Assembly (NCBI GenBank): GCA_026397175.1
Contig: JAPLVK010000013.1
Span: 8,232-72,231, forward strand
DNA: 64,000 bases
DNA from: Candidatus Berkelbacteria bacterium
GTDB taxonomy: Bacteria; Patescibacteriota; UBA1384; DTJR01
Direction: 5' to 3'
The stretch's first letter is position 1, and the number at the start of each line of letters is the position of its first letter. The translations under genes were made by a program, and so were the position numbers. This document shows, piece after piece, positions 818-9,027 of the stretch. The notes under the pieces are model-generated. The model was not told where the DNA came from and made no database searches. It saw nothing but the letters and a program-made list of their open reading frames with translations.

Positions 818-979
818 TTATTCTGCGGCTGGTTTTTCAGCTTCTTCGGGTTTTTTTTCTCCACCCTCTTCGCCCGTTTCTTCTTCGTCATCTGCTTCTG
901 CTGCTGGCGCTGGAGCCCCCCATGCTGGAGTTGCTTGTGTGCCTTCCTCTTTCTCTTCTGGTTTTGTTGTGTCGTCCAT
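818..979 (-). CDS. small acidic protein (53 aa, MDDTTKPEEKEEG...EEAEKPAAE), below the ORF-track cutoff
   Basis: manual translation; strong SD GGAGGAGG 7 nt upstream of the ATG at 979; followed by the hairpin at 781-807. Confidence 0.4.
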   Translation of the reverse strand: MDDTTKPEEKEEGTQATPAWGAPAPAAEADDEEETGEEGGEKKPEEAEKPAAE

Positions 980-1170
980 TTTATTCACCTCCTCCCAATT
1001 TTTTTCATTTACTTTTTACAAATTAATTATAACCGCAAATAAAAACAATAAACACCTCTTTGTCAAGACCGAAATAGCACAAGGTATTGATTATTTTGGC
1101 AAAAGAGGTATATTTCGAGCAAGATCATTTCGCACCCATTGACATTACAGGAAGAAAGAGAGGCGCAAAA

Positions 1171-1611
1171 ATGGCTAGCACAACTCGTGCGGAGGCGTAT
1201 TACCGCGAGCTTCTGGAGGGGAGGTATGCATACCCGGTTGATGGTTTGTTGGTGATGATTGAGGAGATCGAGGGTCGTGATGAAATCGACCCCAACACAC
1301 AGGGTCAAGCTATGTTGTCCGCATTACTCCAGAACTGGGCCTTTTCAGTAGCTCATTGTGCGTGCCATGATCTGTCTATGGATGGTGGTAAGCGGCTCCT
1401 GGCTGCTGCCATGAAGGTTCAGGGCTCCGGGACTCTTTCCCCACATATCCTTGACTGCGCGATAGTCGTACTTGGTCCGGATCTGCTTGAGGCCCTTTTT
1501 GAGGCCAGGCAATTTCCGGGCTGGATGCTGTCTCGCATCGATCTCGAGGGAATGCCGCCATATCTAATCACCACGGGTATGATTCCCGGCGATGACATGG
1601 TGGAGGGCTAA
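1171..1611 (+). CDS. hypothetical protein encoded in a GC-rich (~55%) island, probably horizontally acquired
   Basis: ORF MASTTRAEAYYRELLEG...; GC content contrasts sharply with the flanking DNA; followed by a GC-rich terminator. Confidence 0.55.
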   Translation: MASTTRAEAYYRELLEGRYAYPVDGLLVMIEEIEGRDEIDPNTQGQAMLSALLQNWAFSVAHCACHDLSMDGGKRLLAAAMKVQGSGTLSPHILDCAIVVLGPDLLEALFEARQFPGWMLSRIDLEGMPPYLITTGMIPGDDMVEG

Positions 1612-1630
1612 GGGTCCAAGATAGGGTTTC

Positions 1631-1670
1631 GGGGTGGTCTGACAATTGTCAGACCACCCCATTTGTTTTT
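1631..1670 (+). terminator. rho-independent terminator (ggggtggtctgac aatt gtcagaccacccc followed by atttgttttt)
   Basis: perfect 13-bp stem followed by a T-run. Confidence 0.7.
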
Positions 1671-2490
1671 AAAACAATTTTCCTTCCAGATGAGGTTCTT
1701 TTTTGTCGGACTCGAGCTTTGTTTCTAGATCTTTTTTGTCTATTTCTATTTTTTGCGATTGAAACCGATACTTGCAATAATCACAGTTCTCATTACGATC
1801 GGGGATCAAATCACTTTTTAGACATTTATGCGCTTCGATTAATTTTGGCTCAATCCATTTATCGTCTCCATTATAGGGAATCAGTTCAATATCAAACTCA
1901 AGTTTTGCATCAAAGGCCTTCCTATCTTTCAGAGCGTTGCAGTAAACAAAATATCCGGTTTTGGAGACATTAAAACCGTTTTGCCTAAACAACCATTGAT
2001 AAATTTCAAGCTGGCGTTTGTAGCTCGCCTTCCATTGATCTTCCATATCTATTTTGCCTTCCTTGCTGGTGGCCTTGTAATCAACCACAATGAATTCGTC
2101 TTTGTCGTTGATCCAGAGGTCGTCAATACCACCATAAAATTCTATATTGGTCGGCTTGTGCAAAAATTTAATACCCTTAAAAACCTCGCGCCATTCATTC
2201 AATTTTTCGTGGGTTACGGGTCGCGCGTTGACGGAATATTTAGCAAGTAGGGGATGGGTCTCGCCTTTGGCTCGATGGATATCAAACTCCTTTTTTAAAA
2301 GTGTGTCAACGGCAGAATTTAAGGTAAAAGATGGTGTCGGGGGCGGCGCGATTCCGAGCCGTTTATCTAAATAAAAGCATCTTGGGCATCTGACAAATAA
2401 TTCAAGTCCAGATCTGCTCATTCTGTATGGCTCTTTTGATTTTGGGTCAAAATTGTATTTTGCCGGCTTTGGCGGGTTATAATATCCCAT
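1669..2490 (-). CDS. PD-(D/E)xK nuclease, Cas4/RecB-like with Fe-S cysteines, standalone with no CRISPR locus
   Basis: N-terminal RCPRCFY; IDDL...VVDYK (D...D/ExK); QLEIY (QxxxY motif); C-terminal C-x(n)-CDYC cysteine cluster. Confidence 0.65.
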   Translation of the reverse strand: MGYYNPPKPAKYNFDPKSKEPYRMSRSGLELFVRCPRCFYLDKRLGIAPPPTPSFTLNSAVDTLLKKEFDIHRAKGETHPLLAKYSVNARPVTHEKLNEWREVFKGIKFLHKPTNIEFYGGIDDLWINDKDEFIVVDYKATSKEGKIDMEDQWKASYKRQLEIYQWLFRQNGFNVSKTGYFVYCNALKDRKAFDAKLEFDIELIPYNGDDKWIEPKLIEAHKCLKSDLIPDRNENCDYCKYRFQSQKIEIDKKDLETKLESDKKEPHLEGKLF

Positions 2491-2612: not shown

Positions 2613-2686
2613 TCCCGGGTCGTCTAGTGGCAGGACAGCTGGTTTTGGTCCAGCTAACCGGGGTTCGAATCCCTGCCCGGGAACCA
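2613..2686 (+). tRNA. tRNA-Gln (anticodon TTG), CCA encoded
   Basis: cloverleaf folded by hand: acceptor TCCCGGG/CCCGGGA, anticodon stem GCTGG/CCAGC, loop TTTTGGT, T-stem CGGGG/CCCTG with GTTCGAAT loop. Confidence 0.85.
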
Positions 2687-2807
2687 AACCATATGTATCC
2701 ACGAAGTGGATAGTTATGGTTTGGTGGAGAGAAGGGATTTGAAAGGCGCAGGCCCGACGGGGCCGAGCCGGGGTCGCGAAATCCGCCAGCAGGCGGATAT
2801 TTGTGAC

Positions 2808-2828
2808 CGAATCCCTGCCCGGGAACCA
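2808..2828 (+). repeat. 21-nt direct repeat of the tRNA-Gln 3' end (cgaatccctgcccgggaacca); att-like scar
   Basis: exact duplicate of 2666-2686, located 142 bp downstream. Confidence 0.6.
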
Positions 2829-5189: not shown

Positions 5190-6017
5190 TTAAGATAACA
5201 ATCTTTTCTTCTTTGGTAAGAAATTGTCTTTTGATACTACAGATCGACCGAGGCGCCTTTCCAACTTCTTTCTTGCTCCACCGGCAATATCACCGCCGGC
5301 TTTGGCATCAGATTTTAATTTATTCAGACCTTTAGAGTTTTCATTGCGATGAATTTCTGAAGTGGAACGCTCGCCAAGCATTGTAAATATCAACTCAAAA
5401 TCATCCATGTGGTCGCGCAGATTTTCTCTTTTAATCCCTTTAATAAGTTTTTTGTACTGGCTTGGCGTAACGCCAAATGCGGCCTTCGAGATTTCGGCGG
5501 TAAGGATTGCATAATCTTTTTGTTGTTTTGCGCCGCGTTTATCCCATTCATCTGTTAATTCCTCGCGAATAACAATGCCACGCATTCGGTTTTCGATCCA
5601 ATCGTCAGGATAACCCTTGGCGCGATATAGCGCTCGTGTTCGCTTCATGCCAAGTTCAGGATCGTCAATTTCCTGAACTCGTTCATAACCAACTTTTGCC
5701 AACCAGCGTTTAAATGGCTCTGCCTTTGGCGAAGTAATTGATTGAATAATGCGAAAGAGTCCTTCGGTATTAGAACAAAGCATCTTTTGTTTGCCACCTT
5801 CCGTTGGTACTTCAAGGGTATGTACAATTCGTACCCACCCTTTAGTTAGTTCTACATCACGCTGTTTCATGCGTTGGATATACTGCTTTGGATCGCTTGA
5901 ATCAATAAGTGCCAGAACAACATCTTCTACCACAAACCACCACTCGTTTTTGTAGATTGCTCGCCGAATTTCTTTTTTCTGAAAAATTGCAATTTTGTTT
6001 ATAAATTTCTCTGTCAT
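5190..6017 (-). CDS. Bro-N domain protein (DinD / phage antirepressor-like)
   Basis: N-terminus IFQKKEIRRAIYKNEWWFVVEDVVLAL resembles Bro-N; basic C-terminal half; sits next to a tRNA. Confidence 0.6.
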   Translation of the reverse strand: MTEKFINKIAIFQKKEIRRAIYKNEWWFVVEDVVLALIDSSDPKQYIQRMKQRDVELTKGWVRIVHTLEVPTEGGKQKMLCSNTEGLFRIIQSITSPKAEPFKRWLAKVGYERVQEIDDPELGMKRTRALYRAKGYPDDWIENRMRGIVIREELTDEWDKRGAKQQKDYAILTAEISKAAFGVTPSQYKKLIKGIKRENLRDHMDDFELIFTMLGERSTSEIHRNENSKGLNKLKSDAKAGGDIAGGARKKLERRLGRSVVSKDNFLPKKKRLLS

Positions 6018-6120: not shown

Positions 6121-6195
6121 TGGTGGTCGCTACTGGATTTGAACCAGTGACATTACGGATGTGAACCGTACGCTCTACCGCTGAGCTAAGCGACC
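6121..6195 (-). tRNA. tRNA-Val (anticodon CAC), CCA encoded
   Basis: reverse complement GGTCGCTTAGCTCAGCGGTAGAGCG...TTCACAT loop...GGTTCAAATCC...AGCGACCACCA folds as a cloverleaf. Confidence 0.85.
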
Positions 6196-6242: not shown

Positions 6243-6422
6243 GTAGACCAGACCTTCTTGTTGATAACACACTTAAAGTATGGGCTACGAAGTCCCTGTA
6301 GTCCAAGCTTCAGCTTGTTGGATAGCACGATAAATCGTGGGTTACAGATTCTCTGTAGCTCAAGCTTCAGCATGTTTTCTCACACTAAAGCGTGGGCTAC
6401 GAAATCCGAAATCATGGGCTAC
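6243..6422. repeat. BIME/REP-like array, locus A: alternating 16-nt palindromic arms (gtagtccaagctttag / ctaaagtgtggactac variants) with short linkers
   Basis: arms and linkers read directly; same family as 12407-12555; both start with ccagacctt. Confidence 0.7.
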
Positions 6423-8236: not shown

Positions 8237-9027
8237 AAATTTTCTTTTTTTTCGACTTGTTCGGTTACCTTGGCTGATTCAGCTAAAACTTTATCACGTT
8301 TGCAAATAATATTCAAGGCACTAATTTTTCTATAAACATTTGCAGGTGTTTTCGAGACAACCTCATTACCTATTAATATAGGTAGGGGATTGTCCGATTT
8401 TATTTTTATGATTTTTCCTTTGAAGATGCTTCTGTCGGCAGAGGACTGTTCTTTGCCGGTTAACCAGTTAAAAGCCGATTTAAAAATTGACTTCTCTTGC
8501 AAGTATCTTTCCAGCAAAATGTATAAGTTGTTCGAAATCTCGAGTCGATCTATAATTGCTTCGGCTTTCCAGTGGTCAACTTCCAAAACAATTCTAGTTG
8601 GGTTGGGACATTCAATTCTGGCTGATGACAGAAAATAATGATTTGGTTCAACCAGACCAAGCGTAAATTTTTCAAGCTTTCTAAATTTTAATGTTTCACA
8701 GGCCTCTTCTGCCGATTTGAATCCCCATCTTTCATATAAAATTGAGTTAGGATCCGAGGATATGATTCCGAGTGCTACTGTGTATAGCGCTTTAGCATTT
8801 ATGATCGCGCTGACAATTTTATTAACATGACTATCGTCTCCAACGGCAACAATGGTCGTATAATTTTTTTCAATCGCAATTTGAACCAGTTCTTCGGGCG
8901 ACCTTGCTGGTGAGGCCTGGGCATTTTCACCTTGAATTGAAAACTCGCGAGCTATGTCCCGAATCTTTTCAAAATTTGCCCTTTCGTGAACAGAGTTGGG
9001 CTGCTCAAATATATAGTAGTACATCAA
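8221..9027 (-). CDS. DAGK_cat-fold lipid kinase-like protein with degenerate nucleotide motifs
   Basis: IFEQPNS...VAVGDDSHVN...ALGIISSDPNS match the YegS/DgkA layout, but GGDGT is replaced by GDDSH and GTGND by SDPNS. Confidence 0.5.
   Translation of the reverse strand: MMYYYIFEQPNSVHERANFEKIRDIAREFSIQGENAQASPARSPEELVQIAIEKNYTTIVAVGDDSHVNKIVSAIINAKALYTVALGIISSDPNSILYERWGFKSAEEACETLKFRKLEKFTLGLVEPNHYFLSSARIECPNPTRIVLEVDHWKAEAIIDRLEISNNLYILLERYLQEKSIFKSAFNWLTGKEQSSADRSIFKGKIIKIKSDNPLPILIGNEVVSKTPANVYRKISALNIICKRDKVLAESAKVTEQVEKKENFWEQK

Follow-up and report, generated by a model that had tools for sequence, protein, structure and literature searches.

A probable horizontally acquired, GC-rich single-gene cassette in a variable slot next to a Cas4-like nuclease gene of Candidatus Berkelbacteria

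A stretch of 64,000 nucleotides from Candidatus Berkelbacteria (contig JAPLVK010000013.1 of assembly GCA_026397175.1, positions 8,232 to 72,231; hereafter the window, whose numbering is used unless a relative is named) contains a short GC-rich segment, from about 1097 to 1670, which is probably (at a likelihood of roughly 0.7) a horizontally acquired single-gene cassette lying in a hypervariable slot 3' of a conserved Cas4-like nuclease gene. Its gene is a 146-codon open reading frame (ORF), referred to here as ORF146 (MASTTRAEAYYRELLEG..., 1171–1611, plus strand). So read, the segment is an ordinary islet within a hotspot of horizontal gene transfer (HGT), carrying an orphan gene of unknown function. 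In bacteria, HGT is known to concentrate in chromosomal hotspots with rapid gene turnover, as described by Oliveira et al. (2017; PMC5635113), and both HGT and genomic islands have been reported to be frequent in Patescibacteria (PMC12455944). The present locus provides a cleanly mapped case, empty site included, of an ultra-small genome of the candidate phyla radiation (CPR) acquiring, and presumably expressing, a foreign gene without visible mobile-element machinery.

A first-pass annotation, made from the letters alone, had described a GC-rich island whose codon usage differed from that of the flanking genes, and both features were recovered by calculation. The GC content is 54.4% for ORF146 and 53.8% for 1160–1670, compared with 38.9% for the 64-kb window. 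When segments of 441 nt are taken across the whole window (mean 38.9%, standard deviation 3.9%), the richest of them all, with 54.9%, is found at 1186–1626, in the ORF146 region, and the runner-up reaches 49.7%; the remaining GC peaks are ordinary ones (RNase P RNA, a tRNA region and enolase). At the first, second and third codon positions the GC fractions of ORF146 are 0.63, 0.42 and 0.58, against means of 0.45, 0.34 and 0.36 for the 67 long ORFs of the window, and its third-position value (GC3) ranks first in a set where the standard deviation is 0.05. Because GC3 is 0.58 in the cassette and 0.36 in the host, the cassette has not equilibrated with the host mutational bias. The island does not extend further to the left. 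An ORF for an acidic protein of 56 aa (818–988, minus strand) owes its apparent GC richness to its amino-acid content; since its GC3 is 0.29, this ORF is native and the island is limited to about 1097–1670, that is, 574 bp. Its inclusion in the island is also ruled out by its presence in the relative described next.

The insertion was mapped against L106, a short contig of 1,288 bp that encodes the closest relative found of the window nuclease (82% identity over 200 aa). Positions 1–606 of this contig match window positions 2273–1668, ending at the nuclease stop codon, and positions 604–1288 match 1096–397. In the global alignment the gap corresponds to window positions 1097–1670 (574 bp) and falls exactly at the nuclease stop codon; each junction lies within an A-run, which leaves about 3 nt of uncertainty in its edges. 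Directly behind the nuclease gene, L106 has the gene of the acidic protein, its hairpin and a membrane-protein gene, whose counterparts in the window are found at 988–818, 806–781 and 771–442, respectively. The cassette is, consequently, a true insertion relative to L106, which represents an empty site, and the proposal that the segment had been acquired, being both compositionally foreign and inserted, is sustained by the way L106 joins the same flanks without 1097–1670. The further proposal that the acquisition was recent could not be upheld, as the two flanks of the empty site are only 78% and 69% identical to the window in DNA.

Given that the source is a metagenome-assembled genome (MAG), an artefact has also to be weighed, namely an assembly chimera or contamination, or else a structured non-coding RNA mistaken for a gene; an explanation of this kind is extremely improbable. 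A chimera would have to break twice and rejoin syntenic host sequence precisely each time, and in independent JGI assemblies the same low-GC nuclease gene likewise has homologous GC-rich genes next to it, so that, as judged from these comparisons, a chimera at the cassette is very unlikely. Region 1160–1670 does fold more stably than expected (z = -4.0), but the signal comes from the terminator alone: ORF146 by itself gives z = -0.95 and has no Rfam match, which makes its reading as a structured RNA unlikely, and the substitutions between its homologues are biased to third codon positions.

The slot, defined as the interval immediately 3' of the nuclease gene, has been compared among relatives belonging to two clades. 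In the window clade it holds the ORF146 cassette, convergent with the nuclease gene, in the window itself; it is empty in L106; it contains a DJ-1/PfpI gene (GC3 0.41) in L095, a locus otherwise fully syntenic with the window (tRNA-Gln, nuclease, acidic protein, membrane protein, lipoprotein and RNase HII); it carries a PaaX-like gene of low GC content (34%) followed by DinB in L089; and it is again empty, and then followed by DinB, in L090. In a sister clade, whose nucleases are 64–67% identical to that of the window and 76–89% identical to each other in the pairs compared, the ancestral gene order is PEBP, nuclease, DinB. Here the slot is occupied by a GC-rich orphan of 292–294 aa in L001 and L086, by a GC-rich orphan of 376 aa in L083, by a GC-rich dienelactone-hydrolase gene plus the ORF146 homologue P0004 in L082, and by the homologue P0003 plus a GC-rich ORF of 95 aa in L081; L084 has no gene there and shows about 190 nt of GC-rich non-coding DNA. 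Wherever the slot of this clade holds a gene, that gene is GC-rich. Every GC-rich cargo gene converges on the nuclease gene, and GC3 in this cargo ranges from 0.57 to 0.78, against 0.38 to 0.43 for the host genes. Taking as criterion an adjoining segment whose GC fraction exceeds that of the nuclease gene by 0.10 or more, a downstream jump was observed at 7 of 145 nuclease loci, five of the seven from the sister clade, and an upstream jump at 1 of 133, both counts being among the matches listed. As for the hydrolase of L082, it has thousands of relatives, the best of them 50–55% identical, and the named ones among these include Planctomycetota, Gemmatimonadota, Armatimonadota and Cyanobacteria; this cargo gene is clearly of non-CPR ancestry. 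Taken together, the gene contents indicate that the slot is hypervariable, being empty or filled with native-like genes, GC-rich orphans or a foreign hydrolase.

Two further observations concern these relatives. The non-coding DNA that replaces the cargo gene in L084 (867–1060) is highly palindromic, and a 40-nt piece of it recurs with about 90% identity in unrelated CPR loci, once in L019 and twice in L025; the element may be a repeat of the repetitive extragenic palindromic (REP) or miniature inverted-repeat transposable element (MITE) type. In L081, around 1080–1200, the nuclease frame stops early (…KKAIKKY*) and the conserved C-terminus (…KYVPTQLL) resumes in another frame, a break due either to a frameshift or to a sequencing error in the contig.

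This distribution bears on whether ORF146 was gained or kept. Its gain in the window lineage is more parsimonious than ancestral presence followed by five or more precise losses. Under the contrary explanation, ORF146 would be an old, vertically inherited, lineage-specific gene that stood beside the nuclease gene in the common ancestor of both clades, was lost repeatedly and has owed its continued GC richness to selection or to GC-biased gene conversion in a hotspot of recombination. Such a history is in line with the position of the homologues, which occupy the same slot in the sister clade, with the 33% identity within the family, which is close to the level of divergence seen in the flanking PEBP gene (36%), and with the host-type promoter of the cassette. 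It is nevertheless unlikely: the gene is absent from all four other relatives of the window clade (L106, L095, L089 and L090) and from four of the six sister-clade loci, the L106 gap coincides exactly with the nuclease stop codon, synonymous sites should by now have equilibrated although GC3 stands at 0.58–0.78 against 0.36–0.43 in host genes, and another cargo gene of the slot, the L082 hydrolase, is demonstrably of non-CPR ancestry.

Several points weigh against horizontal acquisition as reconstructed here. No donor of ORF146 was found, so that its foreign origin rests on composition and on the pattern of presence and absence; the high-GC donor suggested by the first-pass annotation did not materialise, the only homologues coming from other CPR-like contigs, in which they occupy this slot. 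These sole homologues belong to a clade with a 66%-identical nuclease, as might also be expected if the gene had long been inherited vertically and lost repeatedly. The promoter of the cassette looks native, which would not be expected in a fresh import. L106 is short and fairly diverged, so that a precise loss in L106 is a conceivable alternative to a gain in the window. Finally, the functional guess given below is backed by no match in Pfam, NCBIfam, PHROGs, PADLOC, PDB or BFVD. Among the marks of an islet within a hotspot, a deviating composition, an empty site and turnover of cargo were all found, and a donor or vehicle was not.

When compared with HGT hotspots (PMC5635113), the locus is similar in being an interval between conserved genes that shows presence and absence, varied cargo and atypical composition without mobile-element genes. 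It differs from them in that the ORF146 islet is very small (one gene, 574 bp), in that the sister-clade cargo is GC-rich throughout and in that a stop codon is immediately adjoined by two of the insertions.

Acquisition of the cassette would have involved recombination within the A/T-rich stretch just past the nuclease stop codon, either after DNA uptake or through illegitimate or microhomology-mediated joining. In its simplest form, this would be a passive insertion into the short insertion-tolerant stretch that separates the stop codon from the next promoter, followed by retention. As regards terminal repeats or a target-site duplication, nothing was seen beyond an imperfect end match (8 of 10 positions, by eye) and the ambiguous AAA of the junctions, and the L082 hydrolase cassette shows neither the end match nor the AAA duplication. 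Both the ORF146 cassette and this hydrolase cassette lie within 0–3 nt of the nuclease stop codon, and in L082 the P0004 cassette, with its hairpin, lies outward of the hydrolase cassette. L081 and L086, for their part, have a nearly identical hairpin beside the nuclease gene and different cargo distal to it; therefore, the point of exchange is not unique.

Some of these facts could be accommodated by a dedicated, integrase-free capture site tied to the Cas4-like nuclease gene, where new cassettes would enter beside the stop codon and older ones would be pushed outward. Some Patescibacteria would then stack promoter–ORF–terminator cassettes from foreign high-GC DNA, possibly host DNA acquired through competence, with the newest nearest to the nuclease gene, and the ORF146 family would represent one circulating cassette. 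Besides the two independent insertions next to the stop codon and the outward displacement of the older P0004 cassette and hairpin, a similar promoter module in four unrelated cargo genes and the enrichment of GC-rich cargo downstream, not upstream, of the nuclease gene speak for such a site. Even so, it is quite unlikely. The cargo of L086 and L081 differs distal to the shared hairpin, the ATTGATT-type -35 box is the ordinary promoter type of this genome, terminal repeats are lacking and no target duplication goes beyond the ambiguous AAA. Moreover, an insertion can be tolerated over only about 25 nt, from the stop codon to the next promoter, which makes coincidence plausible, and the sample is tiny.

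The arrangement also recalls integron cassettes, since L081 and L082 contain single-ORF units with a hairpin after each, stacked at a fixed point and with the apparently newer unit in the proximal position. Unlike such cassettes, each cargo gene of the window, L081, L082 and L086 has its own promoter-like module, and the hairpins are perfect terminator-like palindromes followed by T-runs rather than attC sites. No core sequence common to the cassette ends is conserved, and the 13 kb examined (1–13 kb of the window) contained no IntI. The GC-rich cargo bias of the sister clade and the stop-codon position beside a solo Cas4-like nuclease gene are, at any rate, mildly interesting. Should this bias and position hold in more genomes, the slot could reveal the sources of new CPR genes, for example high-GC hosts, and the pattern of the slot could show whether the Cas4-like nuclease takes part.

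The nuclease gene itself (1669–2490, minus strand, 40% GC) is convergent with the cassette and forms its right-hand host flank. Its product matches the PD-(D/E)XK profile PF12705 (2e-14) and the PADLOC Cas4 models (4e-10), and scores 34.3 bits with TIGR00372, under the cutoff of 65. It resembles Cas4/RecB-like nucleases in the PD-(D/E)XK_1 domain, in the Cas4 profile matches and in the Cys motifs (CPRC...CDYC) visible at its N- and C-termini; it differs from Cas4 in falling under the NCBIfam Cas4 cutoff and in being widely conserved as a solo gene across Patescibacteria. With at least 580 relatives in GTDB species genomes, it is a conserved host gene and not mobile-element cargo. Hence, of the earlier suggestion that the island adjoins a Cas4-like nuclease, the adjacency and a weak Cas4 match stand, and a part of this gene in mobile cargo does not. 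A tandem-repeat scan of the window gave no CRISPR array, and no cas gene was seen in 1–13 kb.

On the other side of the nuclease gene, and divergent from it, lies a tRNA-Gln(UUG) gene (2613–2686, plus strand) that is no boundary of the cassette; the same arrangement is found in L095. Behind it there is a separate small insertion (2687–2828, plus strand), consisting of a filler of 121 nt (2687–2807) and an exact 21-nt copy of the tRNA 3'-end (2808–2828). The filler is non-coding, has 57% GC and a fold z of -6.45, and begins with a 20-nt inverted repeat overlapping the CCA end of the tRNA; in L095 the same tRNA-Gln/nuclease pair occurs without filler and repeat. The first-pass annotation had drawn attention to this attachment-like duplication as a neighbour of the island, which would make ORF146 what is left of an integrative, tRNA-targeting island delimited by the repeat. 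Tycheposons carry partial-tRNA repeats. They are small tRNA-targeting islands of streamlined genomes (bioRxiv 10.1101/2020.12.28.424599), and the window resembles such islands in having a tRNA gene with an exact 3'-end duplication 1 kb from ORF146; the GC richness of the filler would also be in keeping. The duplication is real, but the two copies (2666–2686 and 2808–2828) enclose only 121 non-coding nucleotides. ORF146 lies outside, roughly 1 kb from the tRNA in the 5' direction and past a nuclease gene that is syntenic with tRNA-Gln in L095, and both junctions of the L106 empty site fall between the nuclease and the acidic-protein genes. In addition, no integrase, transposase or phage module was found in the same 13 kb. 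A tRNA-bounded island is accordingly very improbable. The tRNA-Gln filler is better understood, from its comparison with L095, as a second and independent small insertion that does not delimit the ORF146 island; its appearance suggests the scar of an integrative element or a very small mobile unit.

In addition to being acquired as a unit, the cassette would be expressed as one, that is, autonomously and from a host-type promoter whose -35 box lies in the old flank and whose -10 box lies in the insert. A consensus scan predicted a sigma-70-type promoter at 1087–1114 (plus strand), with the -35 box TTGATT (1087–1092) separated by a 16-nt spacer from the -10 box TATATT (1109–1114). The former belongs to the flank GGTATTGATTAT, which is conserved in L106, and the latter is within the insert. 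Since ATTGATT-type -35 boxes are also present upstream of the native der and uvrA genes, the cassette promoter is of the host type and is not an attachment site. The sequence ATAATCAATAC had been considered as an attachment core and was ruled out, ATTGATT being the ordinary native -35 of this genome. Translation would rely on a ribosome-binding site read from the sequence (Shine-Dalgarno GAGAGG, 1158–1163, plus strand), located 7 nt upstream of the ATG at 1171. The NCBI annotation of this MAG gives instead a hypothetical protein of 171 aa (P0001) that starts at the TTG at 1096. Because this TTG sits on the insertion boundary and precedes the predicted -10 box, the annotated start is likely 25 codons too early; the ATG at 1171, with its Shine-Dalgarno sequence, agrees with the length of a homologue (143 aa). 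The true start is thus probably ATG 1171, which would make the 171-aa model 25 residues too long.

Transcription would terminate at the hairpin 1631–1660. The predicted intrinsic terminator (1631–1670, plus strand) consists of a perfect GC-rich palindrome of 15 bp followed by ATTTGTTTTT and borders directly on the stop codon of the nuclease gene converging on it, so that the GC-rich terminator hairpin noticed earlier behind the ORF is present as described. Its stem motif, GGTCTG...CAGACC, is unique in the window, and related stems are found behind the homologous genes of L081 and L082.

Homologues of ORF146 are extremely scarce. When 5.8 billion proteins were searched by word index, the self match alone was obtained; an exhaustive HMMER scan of 1.84 billion representative proteins added a single credible relative, the 143-aa P0003 (library-wide E 1.7e-4), which shares 33% identity with ORF146 over nearly the full length in a pairwise comparison (E 2e-14). 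A further search with P0003 led to the second relative, P0004, 72% identical to it. Both are encoded by GC-rich genes in the same slot beside the same nuclease gene in the sister clade. Between these two homologues, the differences at codon positions 1, 2 and 3 number 21, 19 and 55, and this third-position bias points to purifying selection on the protein. ORF146 thus defines a real, selectively constrained orphan protein family with three members, so far seen in one genomic slot only. The 3,234-aa repeat protein P0002, which the exhaustive scan also listed with an E of 6.8e-10 over eight stretches, was dismissed as a compositional or repeat artefact. Searches started from ORF146 itself gave no relatives in GTDB genomes, JGI contigs, IMG/VR or, by tblastn, phage and plasmid records; likewise, P0003 and the orphans of 376 and 294 aa had no relatives in IMG/VR. 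As for a possible domain in common with the N-terminal part of the 376-aa orphan of L083, a pairwise BLASTP alignment gave E 9e-5 over 43 residues, and at the profile level an hhalign probability of 8.6% and a search E of 1.3 were obtained; on these alignments a shared domain is unproven.

The first-pass annotation had left the protein without a function, and the database searches agree. Pfam gave no match for either the single sequence or the three-sequence profile, and PADLOC gave none; the best values were E 0.31 in PHROGs (not significant), E 0.035 in NCBIfam (far below cutoff) and E 0.14 (single sequence) and 0.87 (profile) among PDB sequences. A model predicted by AlphaFold from the three sequences (predicted local distance difference test, pLDDT, 74; predicted template-modelling score, pTM, 0.72) has five helices and a C-terminal beta-hairpin, and Foldseek searches with it reached at best E 0.4 against PDB and 0.26 against BFVD. 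The product is acidic (isoelectric point 4.4; grand average of hydropathy 0.10), with no obvious signal peptide or membrane segment by eye, and would be soluble. The residues invariant in the three members include W56, D67, R75, K82, D95 and G117-W118, and no catalytic signature was seen among the invariant residues. The role of the protein is the weakest step of the interpretation. Our best guess, based only on its size, charge, orphan status and location, is a non-enzymatic binder of another macromolecule, perhaps an accessory in genetic conflict or host interaction, with immunity-like or anti-defence-like functions as conceivable examples; an enzyme is unlikely. Small acidic binding proteins of phages and mobile elements, such as DNA-mimic anti-restriction proteins, are presumably a suitable comparison and are taken here as a lead and nothing more. 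Like those, the ORF146 product is small, acidic, fast-evolving and orphan, and is encoded in a variable region; on the other hand, neither its sequence nor its fold was found to resemble any of them, and no phage link was found.

In the neighbourhood, the ORFs examined in 1–13 kb are housekeeping genes with one exception, a Bro-N/anti-repressor-like gene (5190–6017, minus strand; phrog_15286, E 1.6e-81). This gene stands alone amid the housekeeping genes, adjoins tRNA-Val (6121–6195) and may be a phage-derived remnant. Between tRNA-Val and an ORF for a DksA/TraR-type zinc-finger protein, and overlapping the start of the latter, a 57-nt unit is repeated 2.7 times (6257–6407, 70% matches).

In the relatives, the conserved block is also flanked on its opposite side by another large GC-rich gene. 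In L001 (1286–5257), and also in L086 (1 to about 3000), the low-GC PEBP–nuclease pair is adjoined by a gene for a 1,323-aa phosphoribosylformylglycinamidine (FGAM) synthase of the PurL type, with 58% GC and a GC3 of 0.74, which is apparently foreign. Finally, the genes for DinB, a Y-family polymerase, that lie downstream of the slot all have a GTTC-N7-GTTC direct repeat overlapping their promoter (TTGACATGTTCGGTTTTTGTTCG...; L084 1060–1090, L086 5525–5555, L083 1970–2000 and L090 about 8520–8550). This repeat corresponds to the LexA box of the alpha-proteobacterial type and would suggest that dinB is under SOS control in these CPR bacteria.

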